A stretch of DNA of 64,000 nucleotides. Source: a virus (taxonomy: Duplodnaviria > Caudoviricetes). Shown piece after piece: positions 23,898 through 59,434 of this stretch. A model generated the notes under the pieces. It was not told the DNA's origin, ran no database searches, and saw nothing but the letters and a program-made list of their open reading frames with translations. A program made the position numbers and the translations under genes. Positions within the stretch are counted from its first letter, which is position 1, and every line of letters begins with the position of its first letter. The stretch is taken from the IMG/VR virus record IMGVR_UViG_3300037424_000434, positions 171,766-235,765 of that record; one strand, 5' to 3'.

Positions 23898-24212
23898 ATG
23901 ATAAATGTATGTTTTTGGTGTAATAGAGCTAAAGCTGAAGAGCAGGCAGGACAACCCGTTTATACTGACTATGAATTTTGTCCCTTATGTAAGAAGATAT
24001 GTGAACAAGGAATAACCATAATTCAAGTCACAACCGAGTCTAATGGCAATCCGCCCGTCAGGGATGGTCTTTGTCCTACAGGTAAATGGGTTGTGGTATC
24101 AGAAAAAGAATTGGTGAGAGTATTGACAGACTCACCAATTCTTGATACCATCCTGCTTGCTCGACAGTTATATGTAAACAAAAATGATTGGGGGAGCCTA
24201 AAACTCCCTTAA
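23898..24212 (+). CDS. Hypothetical Zn-binding protein
   Basis: CFWC...CPLC. Confidence 0.55.
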   Translation: MINVCFWCNRAKAEEQAGQPVYTDYEFCPLCKKICEQGITIIQVTTESNGNPPVRDGLCPTGKWVVVSEKELVRVLTDSPILDTILLARQLYVNKNDWGSLKLP

Positions 24213-25171
24213 AGGAGACCAACGTGTTTAAAAAATATTGTTCGATCACACATCATTACAACTCAAAGTATATTTCCAAGTGGATAACATATCATCCAGA
24301 ACTGAAAGATGCTATGTACGTCGTTCACGAAAAAGTGGATGGATCTAATCTTCAGTTGATTTTTCGGCCAGAAGATAGTTTGGTTTATGCTAGCCGTAAG
24401 ATGATCCTTGAACCCGAAGACGGGTTCAATGGGGTTAGACAAGTAATTGAGGGTATTTGGGATAATGGTCTTTGGCATATTCAGGAATATTCTCGTATAG
24501 AGAATGTAGTCGTGCGGTTGTATGGTGAATTCTTTGGACCCAAAATTCAAGGTAGAGTAGATTATGGACCAAACAAAGGGTTCCTGATCTTTGACATAGA
24601 AGTTGATGGATTCTGGCTGAGCCCAAGGGAAGTGGAAGACTTTCTATATGATTTGAAGTGCGATCATTTGATGGTTCCGGTCATAGCCTATGCCCATTCC
24701 CTTGAAGAGGCCTTGGAGTGTAACGTAAATTTAAATTCTATGTTGACAAAGGCCGAGGGTGGTACTAATATAATGGAAGGTGGGGTAATCAAACCATATG
24801 AATTAGTTATTAGAACATCGGAAGGTTCAACATTCTATTTAAAAAAGACGAATAACGAATTCTCCGAGAAGTCTACAACCAAACCATGGAGGCAACTAGA
24901 TGGGAGTAATACTCCAGAAGTTGTATCATGGCGCGACACCTTCTGTCAGTATTTGAATGACAACCGGGTACTTTCGGTTTTTAGTAAATACGGTGAGATC
25001 GAAAAATCTGGCCAGATGGGGGATTATATTAGATATATTCTCCAAGACGCCAAAGAATCCTTTTTAGAGGAAGAGACCGATTTTGATATCAATGAATATA
25101 CGAAAGATGAATATAAGTTCATAACAAACGGTGGTAACGCCGTGGCGATGTTGCTTAAAAAATATCTATAG
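24188..25171 (+). CDS. rnl2: RNA ligase 2 (Rnl2 family)
   Basis: Nucleotidyltransferase motifs HEKVDGSN, LYGEFFG, FLIFDI, MEGGVIKP, YLKKTNNEF, plus C-terminal YLNDNRVLSVFSKYG. Probable GTG start 24224. Confidence 0.88.
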   Translation: MGEPKTPLKETNVFKKYCSITHHYNSKYISKWITYHPELKDAMYVVHEKVDGSNLQLIFRPEDSLVYASRKMILEPEDGFNGVRQVIEGIWDNGLWHIQEYSRIENVVVRLYGEFFGPKIQGRVDYGPNKGFLIFDIEVDGFWLSPREVEDFLYDLKCDHLMVPVIAYAHSLEEALECNVNLNSMLTKAEGGTNIMEGGVIKPYELVIRTSEGSTFYLKKTNNEFSEKSTTKPWRQLDGSNTPEVVSWRDTFCQYLNDNRVLSVFSKYGEIEKSGQMGDYIRYILQDAKESFLEEETDFDINEYTKDEYKFITNGGNAVAMLLKKYL

Positions 25172-25208
25172 ACCAGTGAATAGTCTTGTGGGGATTCACA
25201 AAAAGCAT

Positions 25209-25280
25209 AGGGGCTTGGTGTAGTGGAAACATAACCGACTTTGAATCAGTTGCCGAGAGTTCGATTCTCTCAGCCCCCGG
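25209..25280 (+). tRNA. tRNA-Gln(TTG), CCA not encoded
   Basis: Cloverleaf, loop CT-TTG-AA, T arm GAGAG-TTCGATT-CTCTC. Confidence 0.85.
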
Positions 25281-25300
25281 TAATTTGTGAAAGGATTGTC

Positions 25301-25846
25301 ATGACCAAACAGTATGAAGTATCTATAACCGTGAGATCTGGGGAAGGAGTGATGGATAAAATCAGAGCACTGAGAGGGGTGTTTTCTTTTATACATCCAT
25401 CGACAGGCGAAACCCAGTTTATGTTGAGTTTGAAGGAATCTTTCTGGTTAATTAATGAAGCACGTGATGGGGGTGTAATTTTATATTTATCCCCAAAAAC
25501 GGCATTGGAACTCTCAGAAAAGGGATTTATAGTTAAACAACCAAATAACATATCCAAAGGTATTGTCGATGATGGCAGTGAGGAAATAATCACAGTTAGA
25601 ATATATAAAGAAAATGATGGACTTAAGATCCAAGCAGTCAGAACCATACGTGCCGCACTTGGATATGGACTGATAGAATCAAAAGATTTGATTGAGGAAA
25701 TTTGGCAAGACCGCGAACCGGTGGTTGTGGTTATGACAAAAAGAGAGGCAACGATATTAATTGATGGTGGATTCGTGGTGGAGATTTTTCCCCCAGACAC
25801 TGGACCTAACCATTTTGAACCAGATTTATTTGAAATGTTCCCTTAG
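25301..25846 (+). CDS. Protein with two ribosomal bL12 C-terminal-domain-like repeats
   Basis: KIQAVRTIRAALGYGLIESKDLIE and MDKIRALR...SLKES resemble the L7/L12 CTD motif. Confidence 0.6.
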   Translation: MTKQYEVSITVRSGEGVMDKIRALRGVFSFIHPSTGETQFMLSLKESFWLINEARDGGVILYLSPKTALELSEKGFIVKQPNNISKGIVDDGSEEIITVRIYKENDGLKIQAVRTIRAALGYGLIESKDLIEEIWQDREPVVVVMTKREATILIDGGFVVEIFPPDTGPNHFEPDLFEMFP

Positions 25847-25910
25847 TCTAATGGTAGGGCGGTGAGTTGCAACCTCACAAGCAACGGTTCGATTCCGTTA
25901 GGGAATTCCA
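25837..25910 (+). tRNA. tRNA-Cys(GCA), overlaps the stop codon of the upstream ORF
   Basis: GTGAG-TTGCAAC-CTCAC, CCA end. Confidence 0.85.
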
Positions 25911-26092
25911 ATAGCAAGGTAAAGGAGGGTTTGATTCCCTCCATGTCCCCACTAAGGAGAATTATATGGATGATTCACAGTTTTATAGAAAAATTAATGA
26001 TCGTTCATGTAACAGTTCTACGTATCATAAGAAGGATGGAACATCCGTTAGATCAAAATTGAAAGAGGAATTGAAAAAAATAAAAAAAGAGC

Positions 26093-26121
26093 TTGACAAA
26101 GAGGAATTGGTTTGATAGTAT
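26093..26121 (+). promoter_or_regulatory. sigma70-type promoter (tRNA array)
   Basis: TTGACA-N17-TAGTAT. Confidence 0.75.
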
Positions 26122-26179
26122 CCGTCTTAAGTTAAGCAACACGAAACAAAAATTTACGTTTTTTGATAACAGAATAAAT

Positions 26180-26258
26180 GGGTAGTGAGATTAAAATATG
26201 CTGGGCATATGTCAGCCTCCAAAACTGATTTTAATGGGTTCGATTCCTACGCTACCCG
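26180..26258 (+). tRNA. tRNA-Trp(CCA), atypical D arm
   Basis: GGGTAGT/GCTACCC acceptor, CT-CCA-AA loop, weak D and T stems. Confidence 0.65.
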
Positions 26259-26285
26259 CAAAAAACAAAAACGAAAAAATAAAGA

Positions 26286-26314
26286 TTGACATTTGGTGTG
26301 AGATGTGTTTTAAT
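26286..26314 (+). promoter_or_regulatory. sigma70-type promoter (tRNA array)
   Basis: TTGACA-N17-TTTAAT. Confidence 0.65.
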
Positions 26315-26340
26315 CCACCTCAGTTCAATAGAAAAGTTGT

Positions 26341-26419
26341 CGCGGTATAGGGAAGTTTGGTTGTTCCCGTTGGGTTCATATCCCAAAGATCATCGGTTCG
26401 AATCCGATTACCGCTCCCA
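26341..26419 (+). tRNA. Initiator-type tRNA-fMet(CAT)
   Basis: Mismatched 1:72 pair, three G-C pairs in the anticodon stem (TTGGG/CCCAA), CCA. Confidence 0.85.
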
Positions 26420-26427
26420 GTTGTTAT

Positions 26428-26505
26428 GCTCCTGTAGTCCAAATTGGAGAAGGACATTGCTCTTTCAAGGCAAGTACGAGGGTTCGATTCCCTTCAGGAG
26501 TACCA
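26428..26505 (+). tRNA. tRNA-Glu(TTC)
   Basis: Cloverleaf, CT-TTC-AA, CCA. Confidence 0.92.
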
Positions 26506-26510
26506 GTCGT

Positions 26511-26637
26511 TTTGGATAGTAGTTTAAATGACGAAGAACGTGCCCTTTAATATGGGCAAAGTGAGGAAAGTACCTCGTAAATCGCAGTACAGAAATGTAC
26601 GCCGTGTTTAGGGAAACCGCCCTCCTATCCAAAACCA
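26511..26637 (+). ncRNA. 127-nt tRNA-like RNA with 9-bp acceptor, 8-nt anticodon loop and extra arms
   Basis: TTTGGATAG/CTATCCAAA-A-CCA, D stem GTTT/GAAC, TGCCC/GGGCA, two further hairpins, no TTC T-loop. Confidence 0.75.
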
Positions 26638-26642
26638 GTTTT

Positions 26643-26717
26643 GTCTCATTCGACTAGGGGTTAGGTCATTAGCCTCTCAAGCTAAAAACATGGGTTCGAT
26701 TCCCATATGAGACACCA
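26643..26717 (+). tRNA. tRNA-Glu(CTC)
   Basis: Cloverleaf, CT-CTC-AA, CCA. Confidence 0.92.
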
Positions 26718-26804
26718 ATTGGAACAATGGCACGGTGATGGATGGTCTGTCTTGGTTGGATAAACATGAGTTCAGAGAAGAAAGAAAAAATAAGGAAATA
26801 GTTG

Positions 26805-26833
26805 TTGACAATGAGTGTGAGTTCTGATATACT
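26805..26833 (+). promoter_or_regulatory. sigma70-type promoter
   Basis: TTGACA-N17-TATACT. Confidence 0.85.
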
Positions 26834-27034
26834 CTACTCAAGTCAAAACCTCTCCAACGCAGAGAACGAATCGTAAACGTTGGAAACCAAAGTCTATGAC
26901 AGTTAGAGGTCTGTTATCTAGTCAAGTTAAAATGAAAGTTGTGTTCATGGGTGCAGCACATTAAATCGCTTGGGGCCAACGTGGCGAATTCGAATAGTCA
27001 TATAAAAACGAGAGCTTTCATTTTAAACATTTTG

Positions 27035-27111
27035 GGGGTAGGGCACAGGTTGGCATCTGGTCTTGTCTGTAAAACAACGCAAATACGGTTCGATTCCGTG
27101 CTACCCCACCA
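27035..27111 (+). tRNA. tRNA-Tyr(GTA) with short variable arm
   Basis: GGGGTAG/CTACCCC, CT-GTA-AA, CCA. Confidence 0.8.
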
Positions 27112-27369
27112 ATTTAAATGGTAAAAACAGGTAACATTCTGGTTTAGCTAACCAAAATAAATCCTGTCTATAATTTGATGACCGGTTAAATCAGATTATT
27201 AAGCGTTTGCCCCTAGAGTCGATAAAGGGGTAACAATTTAAATGGTAAAAACAGGTAACATTCCGGTTTAGCTGGCCAAAAATAAATCCTGTCTATAATT
27301 TGATGACCGGTTAAATCAGATTATTAAGCGTTTGCCCCTAGAGTCGATAAAGGGGTAGCAATTTAAATG
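27111..27369 (+). repeat. Tandem direct repeat, unit 124-125 bp, two copies plus the start of a third
   Basis: Units begin AATTTAAATG at 27111, 27235 and 27360. Confidence 0.97.
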
Positions 27370-27374
27370 TATAT

Positions 27375-27549
27375 GCTCCCGTGTAGAAATATGGCCAACA
27401 CGAGAAAAAATATCCCATTCATGAGGGGATTACAGTAACGTGAAGGACTCTAGCCCGGACTCGAAAGGCGCATCAAGCGAAGGTGAACGGTTATCTGGGA
27501 TAGTTGATAGCAACTATAATTGCTGGTTCGAAGCCAGCCGGGGGCTCCA
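27375..27549 (+). ncRNA. 175-nt tRNA-like RNA with a large insert replacing the anticodon loop
   Basis: GCTCCCG/CGGGGGC-T-CCA, T arm GCTGG-TTCGAAG-CCAGC, TATCCCA/TGGGATA helix enclosing 78 nt. Confidence 0.8.
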
Positions 27550-27689
27550 ATTTGTGGGTACCAAATAAAGAGTGCTTTGTCAACCACGGAGAAAGACATG
27601 AAACAAGAAATTAATCAAGAAGAACTGGAAAAAATGGAGACGTGAAAAATGGATTGAATACGCATCGGTTCGCGTAACTTTGGAGCGCC

Positions 27690-27944
27690 TTGTTATGGCG
27701 CGGAGGTAGGGAAGTGTTAAGTAAAAATCAAATGAAGGCATTAAAGGAATTAACCGCAGCCTTCAAAAAGTGTAAAGCGGTAAATATTTCTTTCTGCGGG
27801 ATGGACTGCGATCTTCTTGCGTATGATCGAGAAGAATTAAGCTCTCAAGAAAAAGAGTTGGGTGGTCTTCACGAAGCGCAAGGAAAATGTGACCATGAAA
27901 TAGTTAATACGCATGGGACATATTTAGACAGCGGAGGCTGGTGA
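27690..27944 (+). CDS. Hypothetical protein
   Basis: ORF with GGAGG RBS (probable GTG start near 27714). Confidence 0.5.
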   Translation: MLWRGGREVLSKNQMKALKELTAAFKKCKAVNISFCGMDCDLLAYDREELSSQEKELGGLHEAQGKCDHEIVNTHGTYLDSGGW

Positions 27945-28112
27945 ACGTAAGGGGGGCGATTAGTACCCTATAGCGTTTTCGTTTAAGAGTGGAACAAACG
28001 AAACAAATTCCATTCAAACATTAATATCGCGGTTTTGTTGAAAAGAAAAGAACGGTTGACCATGCGTTAAAGGTTGTGGGATTTAGTAATTCTTTTTGGC
28101 AAACATTTTTGT

Positions 28113-28186
28113 ACCCGATTAGTACAATGGGAGTGCAACTGGCCTACACCCAGTAGACACGGGTTCGATTCCTGTATCGGGTACCA
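28113..28186 (+). tRNA. tRNA-Val(TAC) with C33
   Basis: ACTGG-CCTACAC-CCAGT, CCA. Confidence 0.85.
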
Positions 28187-28243
28187 TTAAAACATGTTAG
28201 GGTTGAACCATGGGTTCGTAAAAACTTTCCCCCTAAACTTTAT

Positions 28244-28318
28244 CCCTGTGTAGCTGAGATGGATTAGCGATTGCCTGAAGAGCAGTATAGAAGGGTTCGA
28301 TACCTTTCACAGGGACCA
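28244..28318 (+). tRNA. tRNA-Phe(GAA)
   Basis: Cloverleaf, CT-GAA-GA, CCA. Confidence 0.88.
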
Positions 28319-28405
28319 TTTATTCATGGGTCGCGCCCATGGCGCATCTATCCTATGCGAAAATCATGGTTACGATCATGGTGTGGATACGAGTGTAGAA
28401 TATAA

Positions 28406-28478
28406 ACCCTCACCGGTGGACTCTGGCATGGTGGCTACGAACTACTATTGGAATGTTCAATTCATTCTGGGGGTGCCA
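28406..28478 (+). tRNA. tRNA-Arg(ACG), divergent
   Basis: ACCCTCA/TGGGGGT-G-CCA, CT-ACG-AA, T loop TTCAATT. Confidence 0.65.
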
Positions 28479-28605
28479 ATTAGAATTGATTGTTGCGGTA
28501 TAATATGGGCGAGTTAGGGCACGTCCACAGAATCCACCTTTAGTGGGGTGGCACAAAGCACTTTAGATGGAGTTGTCAACCATCCAACAATCAACACAAG
28601 TTTAT

Positions 28606-28682
28606 GGGAGCGTGATGGAATTGGCATACGTGTTGGTCTTAGAAACCAAATTTTAGGGGTTCGAATCCCCTCGCTCCTACCA
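28606..28682 (+). tRNA. tRNA-Leu(TAG) with short variable arm
   Basis: Cloverleaf, CT-TAG-AA, 5-nt variable region, CCA. Confidence 0.9.
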
Positions 28683-28938
28683 AAATGCAACAGGTAAACG
28701 CTCTAAAGAACATGAGAATGGGTTGGGAGTAATATTCCGTAACGGATTACCTGACCACTAGGCTACCCATCTAGACCCTTTATTGGGATAAATCATGTCA
28801 CCTGTTTACACTACAGTTATAGATACTGTATTATAAGATTCGTGGGGGATTAGCCCACGAATGCATAGGCATAAGGTTTAAGCCCTTGCAATGACGGGCT
28901 CAAATCAACTAGCTTAGACCGATTTTTTAAGAATTTAC

Positions 28939-29009
28939 CGGTGTGTGAGAGAATGGTACTCATCCATCCTTGGACGATGGAAACGCAGGTTCGATTCCTG
29001 CCATGCCGA
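28939..29009 (+). tRNA. tRNA-Pro(TGG), CCA not encoded
   Basis: CCATC-CTTGGAC-GATGG, C1-G72, A73. Confidence 0.85.
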
Positions 29010-29010
29010 C

Positions 29011-29073
29011 TTGACATGTAATAAATATCTCCCTATCTCTATTTATAATAGTTCGATATTTATTACATGTCAA
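29011..29073. repeat. Perfect 19-bp inverted repeat with 25-nt spacer
   Basis: TTGACATGTAATAAATATC / GATATTTATTACATGTCAA. Confidence 0.97.
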
Positions 29074-29176
29074 TATATTATACTACATGTTTGAAAGGTA
29101 CGCACTTTGGGTTGCACCCTATAGCGTTTTAACTACTTGCCGAGCAGGGCTTTTCAACTTTCAAACAATTTTTTAT

Positions 29177-29252
29177 GCGGGTAGAACTCAGTCTCATGGT
29201 GAGGCAGTAGCCTTCCAAGCTATCGTTAGGTGTTCGATTCACCCTACCCGCT
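29177..29252 (+). tRNA. tRNA-Gly(TCC), CCA not encoded
   Basis: GCGGGTA/TACCCGC-T, CT-TCC-AA. Confidence 0.8.
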
Positions 29253-29345
29253 TTTTACGAATATCGAACATATATCCGAAATCCTCGGGGTGAATGGATA
29301 CCGATGAACCCCTTGAGGTGAGTAGGTAACGTAACAAAAGCATTT

Positions 29346-29420
29346 GATGCTATCGTATAAGGGTTATTACCTCTGGTTGTCAGCCAGATAATGCGGGTTC
29401 GAGTCCCGCTAGCATCGCCA
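29346..29420 (+). tRNA. tRNA-Asp(GTC)
   Basis: Cloverleaf, TT-GTC-AG, G73, CCA. Confidence 0.92.
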
Positions 29421-29447
29421 TTTTTTGTTATATAGATAGACAGTTAT

Positions 29448-29521
29448 GCTCCTCTAGTTCAATGGCAGAGCAATCGCCCGATTAGCGATGAATCAGGGTT
29501 CAAATCCTTGGGGGAGTACCA
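29448..29521 (+). tRNA. tRNA-Ile(GAT)-like with non-canonical loop (C33, U37)
   Basis: ATCGC-CCGATTA-GCGAT, otherwise a good cloverleaf with CCA. Confidence 0.7.
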
Positions 29522-29530
29522 GAATTTTGT

Positions 29531-29605
29531 TCCTTCTTAGTTCAGTGGCAGAACGCTTGGCTGTTAACCAAGATGTCGCAAGTTCGAATCTTGCAGAAGG
29601 AGCCA
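29531..29605 (+). tRNA. tRNA-Asn(GTT)
   Basis: Canonical cloverleaf, CCA. Confidence 0.95.
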
Positions 29606-29610
29606 TTTCA

Positions 29611-29680
29611 GCGGGGTTAGTTTAAGGGAGAACAGAGAGGGCTTGCCTCTCAGACATGGGTTTGGATCCTATGCCCTGTA
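29611..29680 (+). pseudogene. Degenerate tRNA (loop GGCTTGC, nominal CTT)
   Basis: D arm and GAGAG/CTCTC stem retained, T loop TTTGGAT, no CCA. Confidence 0.6.
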
Positions 29681-29709
29681 ATATTTTGTGTTAACACGAG
29701 ATCAAGGAG

Positions 29710-29964
29710 ATGATTATGGTTAACACGTTCGAAGATGACAATTATTTAAAGAGGTTTAATGAGTCACGATCCTTTCTTTGTTCGGGTGGTTATTTAACAG
29801 ATGGGGAGAATCGAAAAATCAAAGATCGGTTCAGGAAAGCCGCAGCAAAAAGTGGAACAAAGCTGGAAACGCTTCCCTTTTTTATCAAGCAAAGGGTGAA
29901 CGTGAACGATTTTGGTATATCAAGGATCATGAATGAGACAAACAAAGAGAGAATCTTTTGTTGA
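29710..29964 (+). CDS. Hypothetical protein
   Basis: 84 aa, AAGGAG RBS. Confidence 0.55.
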   Translation: MIMVNTFEDDNYLKRFNESRSFLCSGGYLTDGENRKIKDRFRKAAAKSGTKLETLPFFIKQRVNVNDFGISRIMNETNKERIFC

Positions 29965-30160
29965 AGCAATAACAAACATGTTAATCGGATATTCATGTGG
30001 CGTATTATCTCAACTATTAGTGTTTCCTTTGGTGGGAATTTATGTATCATGGAGTGATAATTTATTGCTTGCTCTGTATTTTACTTTAGTAAGCTTGTTG
30101 CGAAATTATGTTGTTAGAAGAGTTTTTGATGCAAAGAAGCATAAAAAGGTTTATGTATAG
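29933..30160 (+). CDS. Small two-TM membrane protein common in phages
   Basis: QTKRESFVEAITNMLIGY...LVSLLRNYVVRRVF. Confidence 0.65.
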   Translation: MRQTKRESFVEAITNMLIGYSCGVLSQLLVFPLVGIYVSWSDNLLLALYFTLVSLLRNYVVRRVFDAKKHKKVYV

Positions 30161-30174
30161 GTCGTAAGTATTAC

Positions 30175-30244
30175 GGGGCTGGCGCTGGGACCGCATAGGA
30201 GTTTTGCAAATTTCTTGAGGTGGGTTCGATTCCCACTAGCTCCA
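30175..30244 (+). tRNA. tRNA-Ala(TGC), CCA not encoded
   Basis: GGGGCTG/TAGCTCC-A with G3:U70, TT-TGC-AA loop. Confidence 0.75.
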
Positions 30245-30466
30245 TAATCAGTTAAGATTGGAGAGAGAACGGTACTATTTTTAACTTGGAGGTAATTAGC
30301 TGACGCTTGACGAATATATTGAAATGGCTAAACAAGAATTGGATCTCATGAGAGAAGATTATGAAAGAAATAACAGAATTGATCCAGATTCATGGCCATT
30401 AGAACTTGACTCCGGTGCATGGGGCGAGGAAGAAATGTGCAGGAGATTTTCTTAATAAGAGTTTAC

Positions 30467-30545
30467 GGGGGATTGGGCAATTTGGCAAAGCCGCTTGATT
30501 CAAAACCAAGAGATTTTACGGGTTCGATCCCCGTATCCCCTACCA
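30467..30545 (+). tRNA. tRNA-Leu(CAA) with short variable arm
   Basis: TT-CAA-AA, CCA. Confidence 0.85.
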
Positions 30546-30556
30546 AAAGAGTTTAT

Positions 30557-30632
30557 GGTGTAGTGCCCAAGAGGTGTTTGGCATTCGGCTGTGACCCGGA
30601 TTGATTGAGTTCGATTCTCACATTACACCCCA
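30557..30632 (+). tRNA. tRNA-His(GTG)
   Basis: G-1:C73, CT-GTG-AC, CCA. Confidence 0.85.
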
Positions 30633-30640
30633 AATTAAAG

Positions 30641-30715
30641 GCACTCATGGTGAAAAGGAAATCACAGGAAACTTCTAATTTCTCGTTCTAGGTTCGAGTC
30701 CTAGTGGGTGCGCCA
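30641..30715 (+). tRNA. tRNA-Arg(TCT)
   Basis: Canonical cloverleaf, CCA. Confidence 0.92.
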
Positions 30716-30796
30716 TTTGATAACATTTTTTGTACACTAACAATTGAAATGTTATCACACAAAAATTATAATTGAAAGTGTTTAAAGACAAATTTC

Positions 30797-30922
30797 GGTG
30801 TCGTAAATTAGAGTTACTTCGTCTTCTAAACGAGTGGTCGCTGGTTCGAATCCAGCCAAGATCCCCAAAAAGGTCTTGTAGCTCAGCGGTAGAGCACTAA
30901 ATCTCTCTGATTGATTGTTACC
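30797..30922 (+). tRNA. Circularly permuted tRNA (anticodon TCT): 3' half 30818/9-30867 precedes 5' half 30872-30897
   Basis: Order is anticodon arm, TGGTC, GCTGG-TTCGAAT-CCAGC, CAAGATC-C-CCA, AAAA, GGTCTTG, TA-GCTC-AGCGGTA-GAGC-A. The flanks pair (AATTAGAG/CTCTGATT). Confidence 0.85.
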
Positions 30923-30938
30923 CGAAATTTTGAGTTAT

Positions 30939-31013
30939 GCTCCAATAGTTAAACGGTATAACGGGCAACTTATAATTGTTTGTTGGAGGGTTCGACTCCC
31001 CCTTGGAGTACCA
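30939..31013 (+). tRNA. tRNA-Ile(TAT)
   Basis: GGCAA-CTTATAA-TTGTT, CCA. Confidence 0.85.
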
Positions 31014-31270
31014 CTTTTTTAATAACGACAATGATAAGCGGCAACGGGCACCCAATACTGCCATAAGTGCGGGTGGTTTCAACCGCAAACGATAAAACCG
31101 AGTTGGGATTGCTGCCCTGATTGCGGAAACGAGAAAATCCCTTTCGTGGTTGGGCGGTACATCGTTGAAACAAAGAAGTGTGGCCGATGGCTCTGGGTAT
31201 ATTTTGAAACAAAAAATGTCGGGTTTATACCGGCAACCTAACAACCCACTCTGGGACTTCGTGATGATGA

Positions 31271-31345
31271 ACGGGTGTAGTCCAATTGGCAGGAGACGCG
31301 GGGCTTAAAACCCTGACAGTGTGAGTTCGAATCTCATCACCCGTA
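31271..31345 (+). tRNA. tRNA-Leu(TAA), short variable arm, weak anticodon stem
   Basis: ACGGGTG/CACCCGT-A, CT-TAA-AA. Confidence 0.75.
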
Positions 31346-31365
31346 CTAATAGAAAGGAAAAGATT

Positions 31366-31599
31366 ATGAAAGTAAACATTGACGCAAAAGAATCATTACA
31401 ACGTGACCCCGCGCATGATATTCAATCTGTCTTAAACATTGGGTTCAAATGTCCGGACACGCGAACTGCGATAAACAAGGTAGTGGCAAGACTTGAGGGC
31501 CGTATCTGGGCACACGAAAACGATGAACAACAGATGTGCGAGGATGAATACGAGGACTGCAAGAACGATTTAGCGTTGCTGAAGTTACTGATCGGCTAA
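31366..31599 (+). CDS. Hypothetical protein
   Basis: AAGGA RBS, ATG 31366 within track ORF 31321..31599. Confidence 0.55.
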   Translation: MKVNIDAKESLQRDPAHDIQSVLNIGFKCPDTRTAINKVVARLEGRIWAHENDEQQMCEDEYEDCKNDLALLKLLIG

Positions 31600-31602
31600 C
31601 CA

Positions 31603-31908
31603 GTGAAATTCTTAATAAAAGAGATTTCTAATGAAACTTTTATTCACATTAGAAAGTGGATAGTGGATGTTGATGGAAATGAAAGCTGTAACTATAGAAG
31701 TCGTACCAGTATTAATTGTTTCTTTTATGGCAAACACCATAGAAACAAAACAAAAGACTTCCTGTATCATGGGGAGTCTTTGAGGGAAGCAATTGACGTT
31801 AGAGGATTTGATCCAGAAGGAGTTGCTGAGGTTGATTCTATCTGGGAGTTTTATAAGATCATTGGTTATGATTATAAAAAGAAAAAATATGTTGACAAAA
31901 CACTATAG
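31603..31908 (+). CDS. Hypothetical protein
   Basis: 101 aa ORF. Confidence 0.5.
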   Translation: MKFLIKEISNETFIHIRKWIVDVDGNESCNYRSRTSINCFFYGKHHRNKTKDFLYHGESLREAIDVRGFDPEGVAEVDSIWEFYKIIGYDYKKKKYVDKTL

Positions 31909-31920
31909 AAAGGATACTAT
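31892..31920 (+). promoter_or_regulatory. sigma70-type promoter
   Basis: TTGACA-N17-TACTAT. Confidence 0.8.
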
Positions 31921-31925
31921 TAATC

Positions 31926-32063
31926 ATGGCAGCAAAAAATGGTTCAACCAAAAGCTCAAAACGTAAAATGAAAACTTCTATTGGTAAGAGCAAGAACACT
32001 GTATACAACAAAGCTCACCAAAAGAAACATGGCAAAAAAGTATACCGTGGTCAGGGGCGATAA
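31926..32063 (+). CDS. 45-aa very basic peptide ending KKVYRGQGR
   Basis: MAAKNGSTKSSKRKMKTSIGKSKNTVYNKAHQKKHGKKVYRGQGR. Not in the ORF track. Confidence 0.65.
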   Translation: MAAKNGSTKSSKRKMKTSIGKSKNTVYNKAHQKKHGKKVYRGQGR

Positions 32064-32453
32064 ATGATTATTGCACCAAATGGCATGAGAACGAAGAAAT
32101 CAGGTATTTCTTATTAAGTGACAGGAATAATCATGCATTGGTTAAAGAAATTATTGGGTCTATGTGATCATAAGTGGGAGATCATCAAAGAAATTGAATG
32201 CTTTGAATATAGTTTTTCAAAACATCCATATAAAACGAAATATATCTTACAATGTAAACATTGTGGGAACATTAAAAGAGTAAAGTGAAGTAAAAGGCAA
32301 TGGCAGTTAAAGATGACAAAAAAGATGTTGTTAAAAAGCCGTACAACATATTTTGAGGAGAATGACGATGAAACGAAAACAAAGAGATAAACTCATCGTG
32401 TTCTTGGGATAGATTAACACTCGCCCATGAGCACGTAAAACAACAGTGTTTAT

Positions 32454-32531
32454 GGGCGCGTAACTCAATTGGATTAGAGTATCCGGCTTTTACCCGGTAA
32501 GTTGTGGGTTCGAGTCCCACCGCGCCCACCA
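32454..32531 (+). tRNA. tRNA-Lys(TTT)
   Basis: Cloverleaf, CT-TTT-AC, CCA. Confidence 0.92.
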
Positions 32532-32545
32532 AAATTTTGATTTGC

Positions 32546-32619
32546 GCGGGTGTAGTTCAATGGAAGAACAGTATACTTTTAATATACCTATCGGGGTTCG
32601 ATTCCCTGTACCCGTACCA
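32546..32619 (+). tRNA. tRNA-Lys(TTT), second divergent copy
   Basis: GTATA-CTTTTAA-TATAC, CCA. Confidence 0.88.
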
Positions 32620-32628
32620 TTTTTTGGG

Positions 32629-32703
32629 GGGGGTATAACTCAGTTGGCAGAGTACCTGACTCTTAATCAGGAGGTCACTGGTTCGATCCCAGTTGCCCCA
32701 CCA
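32629..32703 (+). tRNA. tRNA-Lys(CTT)
   Basis: CCTGA-CTCTTAA-TCAGG. The 3' acceptor strand is one C short (possible homopolymer error). Confidence 0.85.
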
Positions 32704-32720
32704 AGATAAAAATAGAACAT

Positions 32721-32809
32721 GGAAGGTAGCGTCATGGCGACAAACTAGTCTTGAAAATTAGGCCGGGTGTGAAAGCCCGAGGGTTCGATTCCTTTACCTT
32801 CTTCCACCA
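32721..32809 (+). tRNA. tRNA-Ser(TGA)
   Basis: Long variable arm, CT-TGA-AA, apparent TTC duplication in the 3' acceptor strand. Confidence 0.8.
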
Positions 32810-32836
32810 ATGGACAAAGCATAAGTCCTTTATTTC

Positions 32837-32910
32837 GCCGCTATAGTTAAAAGGTATAACGCCTGTTTTGTAATCAGGATTTCGGGGTTCGAGTCCTCGT
32901 AGCGGCCCCA
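32837..32910 (+). tRNA. tRNA-Thr(TGT)
   Basis: Cloverleaf, TT-TGT-AA, CCA. Confidence 0.92.
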
Positions 32911-33098
32911 TTTTAAACAACAAAAGGCTCAAGAAGATGTTGACATTATCGAAGCTTAGAAAAGCTTGGCTGAAAAACGTAGGTTACGTTCGCATTGCTA
33001 ATGAGTTGTGCCTTGATCCCGATATGGTCCAAACTGTTTATGCACGATGGACAGAAGAGCACCTTAGAAAAAGATCTGGATGGATGTATCCATATTAA

Positions 33099-33191
33099 GG
33101 AAAGTTAATCAATCAGGGCATTGACACCGACTGCTAATCGGTTGGTTCAGTAGTGATACTGAATAGGTTTCGAGTACCTAGCTTTCCTCCA
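33099..33191 (+). tRNA. tRNA-Ser(GCT)
   Basis: Long variable arm, CT-GCT-AA, CCA. Confidence 0.9.
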
Positions 33192-33209
33192 TTAATGAAA
33201 GGATGACTT

Positions 33210-33950
33210 ATGTTTAAGATAAATCTTCATGCCCATACTCAATATTCCGATGGTCAGGCCACTATTGCGCAAATGGCAGAAGCCTGCAAAGATTTGGAAT
33301 TCACTGCATGTGTTATTACTGACCACGTTTATATGGATGATCGTCGGCCAAGTGTTTCACAGAGTCAATATTTACATAAAATCCTACCAGAAGCCCGTGA
33401 GGTCCAAGAGAAAGTAGGTATTCCTGTTATTGTCGGTGCGGAATTTAGCATTGGACGAATGGAAGAATGCTTAGTGTTTGGAACACAGGCAATCACAGAG
33501 CTATATTCTATGAGACAAGAATATATGAACATTAAAGACGCATATCTTGACATAGCAGATCTTGCATATATTCGAGATAATCGGGATTGTGCTGTTATTT
33601 TATGCCACCCTAGCATTCCCGTATACGGCGATAATTTTTCCACATTTGACCCCGAAAATCCCCAAAAAACCAAACCCATGAAAAATTGGATAACCCAAGG
33701 CGGGGTTAATGTTATTGATGGATATGAAGGGATTAATTCCGGCCAACCCCAGTTTGGTAAATTTAGAAATGTGCCCAAAGAGTTTGATGGTTTGATTTCC
33801 TTTTGCAACTCGGATGCCCATAGTGTGATATCATTGTCATTGGGGTATAATGAGACAGCATCCCCTATATACACAGAAGACGATCTTATAAGGTATATCA
33901 AGGGTGGGGGTGTTTGGAAGCACCATACTGTGCCTTGGAGATACGAATAA
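33210..33950 (+). CDS. PHP-family metal-dependent phosphoesterase
   Basis: NLHAHTQYSDG, ITDH, GAEF, LCHP, NSDAH. Confidence 0.85.
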   Translation: MFKINLHAHTQYSDGQATIAQMAEACKDLEFTACVITDHVYMDDRRPSVSQSQYLHKILPEAREVQEKVGIPVIVGAEFSIGRMEECLVFGTQAITELYSMRQEYMNIKDAYLDIADLAYIRDNRDCAVILCHPSIPVYGDNFSTFDPENPQKTKPMKNWITQGGVNVIDGYEGINSGQPQFGKFRNVPKEFDGLISFCNSDAHSVISLSLGYNETASPIYTEDDLIRYIKGGGVWKHHTVPWRYE

Positions 33951-34201
33951 TGGACAATAACAAACTTGACAAATTAAGAGATATACGGTATACTGTTCGT
34001 AAGTGTTGTGGTACATGTAACAATGCCTGTTTTGAATTCAGGGCTGAATGGGGGACATGCAAAATACATGAATATATACACAAAAAACATACAGGTAAAC
34101 CTAGACATCTGAGTATTCATATGTATGGTTCGTGTGGCAGTTATGATATGAATAATGTTTTTGAAGCTGTCACTGAACACTATAAGGAGTTTTATGAGTA
34201 A
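33914..34201 (+). CDS. Hypothetical Cys-rich protein
   Basis: Probable ATG 33950, CCGTC. Confidence 0.5.
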   Translation: MEAPYCALEIRIMDNNKLDKLRDIRYTVRKCCGTCNNACFEFRAEWGTCKIHEYIHKKHTGKPRHLSIHMYGSCGSYDMNNVFEAVTEHYKEFYE

Positions 34202-34859
34202 TGTAAAGCTGATTGCTGTGACAAAACCTGTTCTGGATGGGTGTGAGACAGCAGAAGAATTGATTTCGTATTGTGCTAGGGTATCAAACCCAGACAATCA
34301 AAGAAAGTATGATACAGCCGGTAAGTTGCTTCGATACATGTTAAAACATAAACATTTCAGTCCATTTGAAATGGCCCATATGGTTATGGAGATCAAAACA
34401 ACCCGCGACATTGCTCGGCAGATTTTGCGTCACAGATCGTTTTCTTTTCAAGAGTATAGTCAGAGATATGCAGCGGTAACCCCTGATTCGTTTGTGCTAT
34501 CAGAGGCTCGTTTGCAGGACAAGTTCAATCGACAAAATTCAATTGAGGTTAGTGATAAAGCATTGCTTGATTGGTGGACTTTGAATCAAGGGAGGCTTTT
34601 GGACATGACGATTGCTCTGTATAATACCGCTCTCGAAAAGGGTATTGCAAAGGAAGTGGCCCGAAAGGTTTTGCCTGAAGGTATTACCGGGAGTGTGATG
34701 TACATGTCAGGCACAGTTCGCAGTTTCATTCATTATTGTGATGTTAGACGGAAAAGCGATACTCAGCTTGAGCACCGATTGATTGCAAATGAAGTGTGGG
34801 ATATATTATGCCAGCAGTTCCCCACTATACCCGAAGCACTGGAGATGTCAGATGAGTAA
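34194..34859 (+). CDS. thyX: Flavin-dependent thymidylate synthase
   Basis: HFSPFEM, RDIARQILRHRSFSFQEYSQRY. Confidence 0.95.
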   Translation: MSNVKLIAVTKPVLDGCETAEELISYCARVSNPDNQRKYDTAGKLLRYMLKHKHFSPFEMAHMVMEIKTTRDIARQILRHRSFSFQEYSQRYAAVTPDSFVLSEARLQDKFNRQNSIEVSDKALLDWWTLNQGRLLDMTIALYNTALEKGIAKEVARKVLPEGITGSVMYMSGTVRSFIHYCDVRRKSDTQLEHRLIANEVWDILCQQFPTIPEALEMSDE

Positions 34860-35052
34860 AGAAATCGTGATATGTGAGGAGTGCTGTGGTAGGGGGTTTT
34901 TGATTAAATCAGTGTTAGAAGACTACCATAGGGGCATATATACCGAAAAGAACGTTCCGTGTAACACGTGCAAGGAGTCCGGCAGACTTATCAAGATCAC
35001 AACCATTGTAATTAGACCATACGAAAGTGACGTAGACTGATTTTTTTTTTTG

Positions 35053-35081
35053 TTGACACAAAGAATGTGGGGTGGTATAGT
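35053..35081 (+). promoter_or_regulatory. sigma70-type promoter
   Basis: TTGACA-N17-TATAGT. Confidence 0.85.
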
Positions 35082-35122
35082 GTTCCTGTAGCGACAAACA
35101 ACCCTGTCGAACGGAGCTAACT

Positions 35123-35497
35123 ATGTGTCAAATGAGTGATATTCATGATGAAGCGGTTAATGCGGGTTTGGAAGCAGGTAGCCGACACAAACCTGTTCCG
35201 ATGATTGTGGGCGAGGAAAAAACCCTCTTCTCAAATGAGATTGATTATGACAAAAAGGTGTACTATGTTGAATCAGGGGTTTGTGGGTTTGCGTGGGTTG
35301 AGATTTTTCCCGCTCGTGGCAAGTTCGTTTCGTATTTAAAGAAAAACGATATTGGCCGGGTTGGGGATCGCGGTTATAGGATTCCTGTTTTTGTGTTCGG
35401 ACAGTCACTTGAACGGAAAGAGAAATACGCCGAGGCTTTTGCATCTGTTCTAAAAAAACATGGCATTAAAGCGTATGCGAACTCCCGAGTGGATTGA
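35123..35497 (+). CDS. Conserved-looking phage hypothetical protein
   Basis: 124 aa, GGAG RBS, GVCGFAWV motif. Confidence 0.6.
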   Translation: MCQMSDIHDEAVNAGLEAGSRHKPVPMIVGEEKTLFSNEIDYDKKVYYVESGVCGFAWVEIFPARGKFVSYLKKNDIGRVGDRGYRIPVFVFGQSLERKEKYAEAFASVLKKHGIKAYANSRVD

Positions 35498-35503
35498 TTT
35501 TTG

Positions 35504-35511
35504 TATAAATA
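35504..35511 (+). promoter_or_regulatory. T4-type late promoter directly before a tRNA
   Basis: TATAAATA 8 nt upstream of tRNA position 1. Confidence 0.7.
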
Positions 35512-35518
35512 GAAGTAT

Positions 35519-35590
35519 GGCGGTATGTATGATTATGACTGGTTGGCTCATATCCGACCGGGGAAAGTTTGATTCTTTCTACCGCTACCA
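35519..35590 (+). tRNA. tRNA(CAT) with reduced D arm
   Basis: GGCGGTA/TACCGCT-A-CCA, GTTGG-CTCATAT-CCGAC, T loop TTTGATT. Confidence 0.65.
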
Positions 35591-35642
35591 TATAGTCAAA
35601 AAGAGAATGAGTCTCTTGGCGATTTTTTGTTAACACAAAGAG

Positions 35643-37939
35643 GTGAATTATATGTCAAAGCATCACGACGAGGTTATTTCGGCGTATGGGTTGAGCACTG
35701 TAACATTTGACCATCTTGCCTTATACACTGTTGGTGTATTTTATTGGGGTGGTAATGGTTCTCCTGTTAGTACATATAAAATATTGGCTGATAAGAAAGA
35801 AGACGCTATTAAATATGTTAATAATAATTTGAAAGTATCTTATCTTCACCGAGTATCAATAATTTCAACAGAACCAAATCCAAACAGGCCAAAACATGCG
35901 TAAGTATGAAATTAAAACAGTGGAAACAAGGTTGCTTATCAGCCTGAAATGTGATATCTGTGGTATGGATATCATAAACTCACCACTTGAAGAACAAGAA
36001 GCAATCTTAATCGCAGATATTGGTGGATATAGTTCCGTGTTTGGTGACGGATGCGAATATCAACTTGATATGTGCCAGCACTGTTTCAAAGAAAAGCTTG
36101 GCCAATATGTGAGAATTTTATGACATGTCCAGAATGTGGTGATATTGTTGTGATAGAGGGATTGTGCAAAGATTGTAGAAATACGATGTTATCTAAACAC
36201 AATTGTACTGATTGTGCGTGTGAATCATATATACAGCCATGTGAAGCATGTGATAATGGATCTTGTAGGGATTCATATTAGCATGATGACAAAAGGAGTT
36301 TAACACTTGGCTAACGGGCTTGTGGCCCAAGGAGGTAGACAGATGAAACCACGGCAAAAAGATCCTTTATGCGTAGAAAAACCGCAACCCGCCGTTGAGT
36401 GCCTTGTTGTGCCCGGTCCAACAACGGCAGAAACAAGCAAATACAAATTCGGCAACATCTCGTGGATTAAGGGTGATCTACAGCAATGTGTTCTTCGGGC
36501 CGCTGTTGATTGGAAAAATTTTCAGTCGGCTGAAAATGCACAGGCTCTCTATATGTCTGTGCTTGCGATGCTTGGGGAAGAACCGGAAAACATACATTTA
36601 CTGGATGGTGAGTCGTAATCAAGGGGAAATCTACAGTGATGTGAGTTTCCAAAGCATACGTGGGTAAAGCATGGGGTATGTTCTTATAGAAACAAGAACC
36701 CAGCAATGGAGCAAAATCAAGGAGTTACAAATGACAGATGATGGATTTTTTGACAGCACGCCACCGGACCCCAAAAGAAAGTTGCGCTTTACCTATACGC
36801 TGTGGTCTTCGACCGGCGCGGGATTTGGTCTAGGTGTCTGGCGCGTCGTTTACTTACCGACAAACGTAATATGGACGATAGCTATTGGCCCGCTGTCGAT
36901 TTATTTACGGTACGTATAGCGATTGTGTTGCTGTAGCATATAACATATTCTAATATATTGAACTAACAAGAAAGGTTGTTATTGATTGAGAACGTTTCTA
37001 CTGCCAAAGGCTAAAGCAATGGCATTGCATTTATCCTCGGAATATCAAGAAGGATATGATTCGCTGGTAACAGAAAATCCTTATGATTTTTTTGATGACG
37101 CGATGAAGCATACTGCATGGTGTTATGGTAAACAAAAGAGAACATTGGAACAAGAAGGGAAGTAATTCTTTCCTGAATTCGTATAATGGTGGTGTATGAT
37201 GGCAGATGATAGTTTAGCCCCTATCCAATTCAAGCATATGACCGTGATAGCAAAACATGATCCCGGTGTTACTGGGAAGTACGAAGAAGGTGAAGTTTTG
37301 TGTGGTTGTGGCCGAGAATTCATGTACTCGATTCAGTATGAAGAAAATTTAAGACAAATTAATGATAGTTTGGTGTTTAGATGTCCTCGATGCTATGCAA
37401 TGAGTCTAGAACAAACCGTTGGACTATTGAGTAAAGAGTGTAGTGAATTGGTGTAAACGAGTAAGATAGGCGGCGATGGTGTAACAGACAGATAATCGTA
37501 CGAGGAGACTCTTATATTATGACTAAATCATTTTGCGGCAAATGTAAATATAGGCAAGGTAGATTCAAGAGTGAATCAAACTGCTCTCATCCCGCAAACA
37601 TCAGAGAGGATGATGATTGGTATGGCGGAGTGAAAATTTATGGAAAATGTCAAATCATAAACAAGGATAATAAATGCCCCAATTTTATGTGGATACCTTC
37701 TATGGACCCGAGGACAAAATATGACTTGGATTAATATTGAAGACCAAGAACCAGAAGAAGATAGAGAGCTGTTCTATTTTTTTGAGCATACTGGTGTATC
37801 CAAAGGCAAGTATCGCCGGACATATTACGACCCCGAAATCTGGGGGGATGGGTTGGGAGATTGTTATATGGATACTTTCTATGGGAGGGGGGGCTTTCTG
37901 TCCGACGATGTGACACACTGGATGTATGTCGATGGACAC
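35643..37939 (+). other. Run of short hypothetical ORFs (35643..35903, 35896..36123, 36307..36618, 37196..37456, 37519..37734), many with CxxC
   Basis: Coupled plus-strand ORFs with RBS-like motifs and no recognisable family. Confidence 0.5.
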
Positions 37940-38023
37940 GATTGGTATCCAGCTCCCCCAAAAGAATTTATTCAGGGAGTAGCAGTAAACGGCCTACCAA
38001 TAAAAGCAGATATGGAAGATTAA
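37721..38023 (+). CDS. Hypothetical protein (DUF551-like W..IEDQEP...DVTHWM)
   Basis: MTWINIEDQEP and DDVTHWMY motifs. Confidence 0.5.
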   Translation: MTWINIEDQEPEEDRELFYFFEHTGVSKGKYRRTYYDPEIWGDGLGDCYMDTFYGRGGFLSDDVTHWMYVDGHDWYPAPPKEFIQGVAVNGLPIKADMED

Positions 38024-38106
38024 GCAATCAGGGTATTGCACCTTCTTGGAAAGGAGTGGGTTCGGCAGAAACGCCGGATAGGATTCGAGTTCCTAGTCTT
38101 CCTCCA
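38014..38106 (+). tRNA. tRNA-Ser(GGA)
   Basis: GGAAGAT/GTCTTCC-T-CCA, TT-GGA-AA, long variable arm. Confidence 0.85.
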
Positions 38107-38150
38107 TATTATATAAAATCAGGCTAAGAGCCTGTAAGGAACAAAATTGC

Positions 38151-38360
38151 ATGTCTAAATTTAAACATTACATAACAGCCCCAACAGATCAAATAGATGA
38201 GGCTACATATGAAGGTAATATAGGATTCGAGGAAATGGTGGATTTTTATAAGAAATCCACTGAATCCGAATACAACAGTATGGAAGATGCTATTTCTAGA
38301 AATGATTGGGTTGCATTTAAAAAACTAATAAAAAGGGTAGTGGGGGTTAATCTAAAATAA
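38151..38360 (+). CDS. Hypothetical protein
   Basis: 69 aa ORF. Confidence 0.5.
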   Translation: MSKFKHYITAPTDQIDEATYEGNIGFEEMVDFYKKSTESEYNSMEDAISRNDWVAFKKLIKRVVGVNLK

Positions 38361-38505
38361 GAATGTCTGAATATATAAGAGTATGTTGTCCCCAATGCGA
38401 CAGCGAAGAAATTGTACCGAAGTATGGAAACATTTTTGAGTGTCGGGATTGCGGGTATGTTGACGAAGAATACATTTTTGAAGATGTTGTTGTAGACGAA
38501 TAAAA

Positions 38506-38581
38506 GGACTTGTAGAACAATTGGCAGTTCGGGGTGCTCATAACACCAAGGTTTCAGGTTCGAGTCCTGACAGGTCCACCA
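38506..38581 (+). tRNA. tRNA(CAT), elongator Met or Ile2
   Basis: Canonical cloverleaf, CT-CAT-AA, CCA. Confidence 0.9.
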
Positions 38582-38589
38582 AATTTTAA

Positions 38590-38944
38590 GGGGTTGTAAA
38601 GGTTTCGACAGTCGTTGGGATGGAGATAACACGTGCAGTAGATGATTGTTGGCTACTTAAAAAATCAATCAAACAGATAAACGCTGAAGATAACTTCGCA
38701 CTAGCGGCATAAGCCGCTTGTCGCTGTGACAACTCCTGATAGTCACTATAGCGGCATCATTAGTCAGGAAAAGCTGACCATGCTTAATGGTATGAAATAC
38801 GGTTTTTTTTGGTTCATATCGCGTCACCGGGGAAGTTATGCTTGGCCGTATTTTCGAGAAAAAAGAGCGCCAAAGGCGAAACGCACGTAATGAATGTTAC
38901 TTTTGAACAATGGTTGGACGTGGGTTCGACTCCCACCAACTCCA
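38590..38944 (+). ncRNA. ssrA: tmRNA, tag (A)AEDNFALAA at 38683-38712
   Basis: 5' GGGGTTGTAAAGGTTTCGAC, 3' GTGGGTTCGACTCCCACCAACTCCA with G3:U70 and A73, tag ending ALAA-stop. Confidence 0.95.
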
Positions 38945-40281: not shown

Positions 40282-40391
40282 GTAATACATACAATGACGG
40301 TGGCGTAGAACAGGGATACTTCACATGACGAAAAGACACCTTGCTCGTTTGATCCCCTGATTTGTAATTAACATTTTTATAGGAAAAAGGC

Positions 40392-59159: not shown

Positions 59160-59434
59160 TTCCGCTAATCACGAAGTCACTAACTTGTTAGGCATGACTG
59201 ATAATTATGGCACAACGTTCTGCAAGAATTGTTCATATTGTATTGTGTTGAAAACTATAAGAGAGTGTGAATGGGATATTTTTCCCCCAATAAGGGTGGA
59301 CAAATCCACACTATACACCCCCATTGAATTTGATTGCATACACTACGACGCAAGATGATTTACCAAAAAGCCATGAGATGCTTCATGGCTTTTAGTTTGT
59401 TAACATTCCACAAAAAATGTGATATACTCCCTAA

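Follow-up and report, generated by a model that had tools for sequence, protein, structure and literature searches.

A 175-nucleotide tRNA-shaped element in the tRNA array of a sediment phage, a candidate non-decoding RNA

Genomic context

We describe an element of 175 nt (27375-27549, plus strand) in which the upper half of a tRNA is retained and approximately 100 extra bases are present. It lies within the tRNA array of a 235,765-bp (236-kb) IMG/VR virus from a sediment metagenome, the record of which is estimated to be 98% complete. The stretch analysed here, referred to as the window, is the final 64 kb of that record. Cultured relatives of the phage are distant: its Rnl2 ligase gene, located just upstream of the array, is at most 32% identical to that of any of 50,697 phage records. 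The array (25208-38944) holds 27 tRNAs called by ARAGORN and a tmRNA, every one on the plus strand, the strand that also carries the element. Coordinates of the main features are collected in Table 1, and e numbers used below count from 27375.

Following tRNA-Tyr, the window contains, from 5' to 3', a tandem duplication, the element, and orphan small open reading frames (ORFs). The promoter-like site upstream of tRNA-Tyr is also located 5' of the element. This stretch of 1 kb is lineage-specific and recently rearranged. A single 125-nt unit of the tandem duplication has a folding z of -2.6. A tRNA-like nature of the units was considered and found unconvincing, as the threshold must be lowered to 70% for ARAGORN to call them and the arms are poor. 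The repeat also breaks the Logan assembly of the source run. The 76-aa ORF downstream of the element has no homologue among 5.8 billion proteins. The element is present in a single copy, and its interior has no copy elsewhere in the genome. Positions 27328-28700 are identical in a second assembly of the probable source run. Among the sequencing runs listed, none of which is an RNA run, only this sediment run covers the element; two other sediment runs contain only pieces of the neighbouring tRNAs and so yield no variants.

Several other tRNA-like sequences of the array are missed by ARAGORN at default settings (28406-28474, 29177-29252, 30175-30243, 32721-32802, and 35519-35586). The one at 29177-29252 scores 31.8 bits in Rfam and has a GCGGGUA acceptor, and the one at 30175-30243 has a G3:U70 acceptor of the Ala type; neither encodes CCA.

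Table 1. Features of the element, its surroundings, and RNA-related genes of the phage. Positions are those of the window unless a contig is named.
Feature	Position	Strand	Details
Rnl2 ligase gene	24188-25171		just upstream of the tRNA array
Promoter-like site	26805-33		upstream of tRNA-Tyr
Tandem repeat	27110-27369		125-nt unit, 2.1 copies, 96% identity; directly after tRNA-Tyr
Acceptor stem, 5' strand GCUCCCG	27375-27381	+	7/7 pairs with 27539-45, including U3:G70
U8, G9, candidate D-stem 5' strand, D-loop-like segment	27382-27397	+	UAGA (27384-87); AAUAUGGCCA (27388-97)
Non-tRNA interior, ~96 nt	27398-27493	+	GC 0.50; predicted local helices CACG/CGUG, AUCCC/GGGAU, CGC/GCG
TATCCCA, 5' strand of the helix in the initial annotation	27411-27417	+	sequence present; probability of pairing with 27496-502 ~0
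UCUGGGAUA	27494-27502	+	three competing partners: UAGA (D stem), CCCGGA (arm C), UAUCCCA (helix of the initial annotation)
Hairpin	27500-27517	+	7 bp, AUAGUUG-AUAG-CAACUAU, or 5 bp with 8-nt loop UGAUAGCA; pair probabilities 0.92-1.0
Variable loop AAUU, 4 nt	27518-27521	+	last U able to form A15:U48
T arm GCUGG-UUCGAAG-CCAGC	27522-27538	+	perfect; G53:C61, T54, A58
Acceptor stem, 3' strand, discriminator, CCA	27539-27549	+	CGGGGGC (27539-45); U73 (27546); encoded CCA (27547-49)
YrlA-type Y RNA	30797-30925		T arm, closed acceptor hairpin CAAGAUC/GGUCUUG, D arm
tmRNA, full	38590-38944	+	tag AEDNFALAA
RtcB	C1:40558-41793 (L013)		456 aa
CCA-adding-type nucleotidyltransferase	C1:88121-88483 (L026)		466 aa
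Ro60/TROVE protein	G000:C1, about 91-92.8 kb (L011/L012)		559-aa frame; TROVE domain 72.8 bits

Acceptor stem, T arm, and core bases

The acceptor stem, discriminator, and CCA of the element are those of a tRNA, and its T arm has both the G53:C61 pair and the T54-Psi55-C56-R57-A58 loop. All 12 base pairs of the acceptor/T-arm minihelix are intact. An initial annotation of this DNA had recognized the 7-bp acceptor (with U3:G70 and U73), the encoded CCA, the T arm, and a GG in a D-loop-like segment, and all of these are borne out. The bases that build the elbow and core of a tRNA are all there as well (U8, A14, A15:U48, GG, G53:C61, and T54/A58). As read from the sequence, the segment AAUAUGGCCA supplies the equivalents of A14, A15, GG, and A21.

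The shell was scanned for with a descriptor that combines a T stem of 5 bp and the T-loop consensus with an acceptor of 7 bp and NCCA. It matches 22 sites in the 64-kb window, all in the tRNA array, compared to 0.01 per 64 kb in shuffled windows. The element is the sole oversized site, measuring 171 nt to the acceptor end, while the other 21 measure 68-89 nt. A TAT (UAU) leader stands right before G1, and the same leader is found in 7 of these 21 other sites. The tRNA-like shell is real, far beyond chance. We also considered that the 5' strand might be complementary to an orphan tRNA 3' half by coincidence alone; by our own estimate this would occur in ~7% of cases, and both the U8/D-loop spacing and the UAU leader argue against it.

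The element is not called by ARAGORN at default settings and has no Rfam match at E ≤ 10, the tRNA model included. No parent emerged when the two shell ends were compared by alignment with all tRNAs of the window and with those of the relatives.

Structure of the interior and location of the insert

The GC content of the interior equals the tRNA mean of 0.50, while that of spacers is 0.21-0.47 and mostly 0.34-0.45. The interior folds no better than shuffled sequences (z of -0.6 for e8-147 and -1.55 for the whole RNA). In the free fold predicted by the energy model, an arm A (e19-75) that includes the AUCCC/GGGAU hairpin is followed by an arm C (e80-125) closed by CCCGGA/UCUGGG, by the hairpin at e126-143, and by the T arm. 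The initial annotation instead had an insert of 78 nt closed by a TATCCCA/TGGGATA helix (e37-43/e122-128). Both segments are present (27411-17 and 27496-502); however, the ensemble probability of their pairing is 0.0, and each strand has a better local partner (AUCCC/GGGAU and CCCGGA/UCUGGG, respectively). Forcing the helix gives -40.5 kcal/mol versus -49.7 kcal/mol with the interior left free, a cost of 9 kcal/mol, and a perfect 7-bp complement is expected in 25% of shuffled interiors.

The location of the insert was approached with a deletion scan, in which every segment of 70-111 nt was removed in turn and a full-length tRNA was demanded of ARAGORN at its default threshold. This yielded 121 passing variants. 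Of 40 controls with shuffled interiors, 37 had no passes and the other three had 1, 1, and 37. The passing variants are driven by the hairpin at 27500-27517. The commonest solution, found in 46 variants, loops out approximately e14-113 and pairs UAGA (e10-13) with UCUG (e120-123; 27494-97) to form a 4-bp D stem. The e126-143 hairpin is then placed as an anticodon arm would be, and the 4 nt between it and the T stem, AAUU, form the variable loop.

This D-stem model has a predicted energy of -44.4 kcal/mol, which is 5 kcal/mol worse than the free fold. In a canonical D arm, a stem of 3-4 bp closes a loop of 8-11 nt with GG. The loop consensus is present here (A-A-U-A-U-G-G-C-C-A), and the UAGA/UCUG stem forms only across ~100-106 nt of looped-out sequence. 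Because nearest-neighbour energies ignore tertiary contacts, and because only the D-stem model frees the D-loop GG for the T loop, we tentatively place the insert (~96-106 nt) in the D loop and regard the hairpin as the probable homologue of the anticodon arm. The insert had originally been put where the anticodon loop should be; with the UAGA/UCUG stem bracketing the extra sequence, the D loop is the more probable site. Similarly, the GTTG/CAAC hairpin that had been described as variable-arm-like does exist, but its position is that of the anticodon arm.

A decoding anticodon arm has a 5-bp stem and a 7-nt loop with U33 and a purine at position 37. The hairpin of the element has a loop of either 4 nt (AUAG) or 8 nt (UGAUAGCA), and the 7-nt register UUGAUAG, with anticodon GAU, leaves two mismatches among the five stem pairs. 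Since the loop has four or eight nucleotides in every model, the RNA should not decode. The tRNA-Ile(GAU) of this clade (L003:2582-2655, window 29448-29521) has the anticodon loop CUGAUUA or CCGAUUA, where position 37 is a U rather than the usual A.

Positions 32-47 of the element are perfectly complementary to window positions 59268-59283 (16 nt, blast E 0.008). The latter site is located between longer plus-strand frames and, judging from its sequence, looks able to form a local hairpin of its own.

Relatives and distribution

Four syntenic contigs, L002 to L005, were reached through homologues of Rnl2 with 57-60% identity. These contigs share the order ClpB-like, DUF932, HNH, Rnl2, and tRNA array, and their tRNA-Tyr genes are 85-87% identical to that of the window. 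The slot after tRNA-Tyr is variable, consisting of 214 nt in L003 and containing a 150-aa ORF in L004 and a 144-aa ORF in L005, with tRNA-Ile(GAU) next in each. Using blastn, we found the element in none of the four syntenic contigs. When L002-L008 were searched with a covariance model built on the element, with filters off, ordinary tRNAs alone were recovered, with scores of at most 13.6 bits. The Rfam and Infernal comparison suggested at the outset as a check has therefore produced no homologue.

Wider searches gave the same picture. There is no blastn match to 27100-27700 among the 50,697 phage records, and a search for related loci seeded with Rnl2 also found none. The 3' 25-mer pattern has no match in viral contigs, and the interior loop pattern has none in metagenome contigs. 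The hairpin-plus-T-loop pattern is absent from genome and viral contigs, as is the D-loop pattern from genome contigs. The T arm with U73-CCA matches once in viral contigs, in an ordinary 75-nt tRNA-Gln. A pattern for the tRNA-Tyr of the clade likewise has no match in viral and metagenome contigs, which indicates that these collections do not contain this clade. By sequence comparison, the element is an orphan that its syntenic relatives lack. A lack of homologues, which the initial annotation had listed as counting against its proposal, is what blastn, the covariance model, and the pattern scans all return.

Other unusual CCA-ended RNAs were encountered in this phage group. Between two tRNA-Glu genes of the window (26511-26637) lies a second oversized RNA of 127 nt, with a 9-bp end helix followed by ACCA, and several arms. 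In a more distant relative, whose Rnl2 is 46% identical, L007:7263-7408 encodes a tRNA-like RNA of 146 nt that ends in CCA and consists of a D hairpin, a very long arm at the anticodon position, and a long variable arm; it has no sequence similarity to the element. At L003:3171-3198, a 5'-truncated tRNA-Val comprising only the T arm, acceptor 3' strand, and CCA is fused behind tRNA-Glu, which shows that tRNA remnants persist in these arrays.

Comparison with tRNA and T4 RNA C

The element shares with canonical tRNAs (RF00005) the acceptor stem, T arm, CCA, elbow and core bases, leader, and location in an array. In contrast to them, it is 175 nt long, has no 7-nt loop in a clean 5-bp anticodon stem, and has a D stem that spans ~100 inserted bases.

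The closest parallel in layout is T4 RNA C (species 1 RNA, rnaC, 139 nt), which occurs with RNA D. RNA C is expressed and stable, and its role is still unexplained (PMC3014915, PMC9697503). Like the element, rnaC belongs to the tRNA cluster of a phage and is encoded on the same strand as the tRNAs, has ends that pair with each other, and has a long arm followed by a hairpin and then by the T arm; its T loop is UUCGAAU. The comparison to the stable RNAs of T4 made in the initial annotation is therefore apt. However, rnaC does not encode CCA, its end helix is imperfect, and its arm is strongly folded (z of -4.6), whereas the element has a perfect 7-bp acceptor and CCA with an interior that has no folding signal. 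The other two oversized RNAs also fold better than the interior of the element, with z of -3.85 (26511-26637) and -6.5 (L007). The two RNAs show no homology at the sequence level, and a covariance model of rnaC built on five homologues (R2, filters off) has no match on 27375-27549 at E ≤ 10. The element is rnaC-like in layout and, as judged from these comparisons, is not a member of the rnaC family.

Ro60, Y RNAs, and RNA repair genes

The phage encodes Ro60, RtcB, a CCA-adding-type nucleotidyltransferase, and Rnl2, which together form a dispersed RNA repair and quality-control kit. The Ro60 gene is located ~107 kb from the element, not within 4 kb, and Rfam finds no Y RNA next to it. The YrlA-like RNA of the window, located 3.3 kb downstream of the element, matches RF02553 with a score of 38 bits, below the gathering score, and an E-value of 7.5e-8; the best matches are at 30833-98 and elsewhere. 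L003 contains two copies (about 5821-5960 and 5978-6122) that can be aligned with this RNA and have compensatory changes. Its T arm, at 30840-57, is identical to that of the element at 17 of 18 positions. ARAGORN miscalls the 5' half of the YrlA-like RNA as tRNA-Arg(tct).

The Ro-strand motif of the clade, GUGNCGUARA, occurs at window positions 30798, 35027, and 40300; beyond the window there is one further site, on the minus strand. The site at 40300 lies in a small Y-like RNA (40290-40375) behind a TTGACA promoter-like site.

Interpretation of the element and alternative explanations

We propose that the element may well be a gene derived from a tRNA, with a stable product of ~175 nt that has the shape of a tRNA, does not decode, and is matured like a tRNA. 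Such an RNA would be co-transcribed with tRNA-Tyr, cut by RNase P at G27375, and trimmed at its 3' end back to the encoded CCA. It would fold into an L shape, with the ~100 extra nucleotides projecting from the D-loop side and the anticodon-arm homologue capped by a tetraloop or an 8-nt loop, and so would read no codon. The tRNA body could serve as a chassis that confers processing, stability, and access to tRNA-binding proteins on a purine-rich, weakly structured payload. Alternatively, the RNA as a whole could act as a tRNA decoy. The other oversized CCA-ended RNAs of this phage group (window 26511-26637; L007:7263-7408) make an RNA of this kind plausible.

In favour of this proposal we count the tRNA shell with its elbow and core bases, the layout shared with T4 rnaC, the recoverable cloverleaf skeleton, the tRNA-level GC content of the interior, the leader, the promoter-like site, the same sequence in the second assembly, and the presence of the Ro60, RtcB, CCA-adding enzyme, and Rnl2 genes. 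Against it are the lack of homologues, the interior without a folding signal, the rearranged neighbourhood, and a D stem that forms only when ~100 nt are looped out. The initial annotation had offered a new tRNA-mimic noncoding RNA. A tRNA mimic remains the best reading; the word new has no backing from conservation, since the element is an orphan. Most likely, the element is an unconserved addition to a kind that is known but unexplained, that of T4 RNA C.

A possible, although more doubtful, explanation is that the element is a decaying tRNA gene, in which a tRNA underwent an insertion or rearrangement of ~100 nt and is now a non-functional relic with an acceptor and T arm that have not eroded. 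The parent was possibly a second copy of an Ile-GAU-type tRNA, such as the relatives carry after tRNA-Tyr. Because nothing related was found anywhere, decay is a live alternative. It would fit an orphan that is absent from the syntenic relatives, that sits in the variable slot after tRNA-Tyr with a recent tandem duplication directly upstream, and that has UUGAUAG in its hairpin loop and an interior lacking a folding signal; remnants such as the truncated tRNA-Val of L003 are moreover known in the clade. However, the 12 minihelix pairs, the CCA, the consensus bases of the T and D loops, and the UAU leader are all intact, and the GC content of the interior is at the level of tRNAs. The spliced form is identical to tRNA-Ile of the relatives or of the phage itself at 41-49 of 76 positions, which is no better than the identity between unrelated tRNAs, so that no recent parent can be named.

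The second alternative in the initial annotation, a tRNA with a protein-spliced intron, we consider very unlikely. Here 75-105 nt would be cut out by some nuclease and the halves joined by RtcB or Rnl2 to give a working tRNA, for example Ile-GAU. Both ligases are encoded, the removal of approximately e14-113 produces a tRNA-Ile(GAU) according to ARAGORN, and ARAGORN at an 80% threshold calls the element as Val(AAC) with a 75-nt intron. However, the phage genome encodes neither a tRNA splicing endonuclease nor an archease (PF01974, PF01951). A clean anticodon arm is not recovered by any of the deletions, as two of the five pairs in the recovered anticodon stem are mismatched and the loop in its natural register has 4 or 8 nt. 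Many different deletions pass equally well, and therefore no single splice site is defined. In addition, A73 is an Ile identity element in E. coli, with which the U73 of the element is at odds. A self-splicing group I intron was rejected: the core (RF00028) requires at least ~200 nt, the insert is too short for one, as had been noted at the outset, and the only match in the window lies elsewhere, at 54449-54691. The end of the ORF at 53909-54526 falls within that intron (58 bits).

We also consider very unlikely a role as the RNA partner of the Ro60 of the phage, in which a tRNA body would bear a Ro60-docking module in the insert and would be the unpermuted counterpart of YrlA. YrlA-type Y RNAs (RF02553) are, like the element, tRNA mimics in a genome that encodes Ro60, and YrlA of M. 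smegmatis is cut by RNase P and gains CCA (Chen et al. 2014, PMC4201824). A genuine YrlA-like RNA with a nearly identical T arm is also present nearby. However, YrlA is permuted, with the order T arm, closed acceptor hairpin, and D arm, and has a Ro-binding strand motif, whereas the element has the unpermuted order and no RF02553 match. It contains neither the GUGNCGUARA motif of the clade nor the published GNCGAAN0-1G motif, even when its fifth position may be either A or U (PMC4201824).

A miniature tmRNA (RF00023), with a tRNA-like domain and a short message for trans-translation, can practically be dismissed: the element does resemble the tRNA-like domain of tmRNA in its acceptor and T arm, D-loop GG, missing canonical-register D stem, and largely replaced lower half, and its interior has an A-rich stretch and short open frames, but it has U3:G70 and U73 in place of G3:U70 and A73, no frame ending in a degradation-type tag, and no match to tmRNA in Rfam or in the tmRNA mode of ARAGORN at an 80% threshold, and the phage already has a full tmRNA. 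This agrees with the initial annotation, which had found neither the Ala identity nor a tag ORF.

Implications

A stronger form of the chassis proposal, which we regard as unlikely on present evidence, is that the element is a functional effector, matured by RNase P and bearing CCA, whose payload or UGAUAG-bearing loop engages a host or phage partner. Candidate partners would include a tRNA-targeting defence nuclease, for which the RNA would be a decoy, the ribosome, and the Ro60/RtcB/Rnl2 repair kit of the phage. As a single orphan copy, the element has limited value as a test case. If the effector reading were true, it would nevertheless open a way to address a question that is 50 years old, namely the role of RNAs of the T4 RNA C type.

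The phage that carries the element has an unusually complete set of RNA repair and quality-control functions, comprising Ro60 with Y RNAs, RtcB, Rnl2, a CCA-adding enzyme, and tmRNA. The tRNA arrays of phages hide non-decoding, tRNA-shaped RNAs that standard tRNA finders overlook, of which T4 RNA C is the classic example. If it is made and stable, the element described here would be a candidate for an RNA decoy or carrier in the conflict between phage and host.
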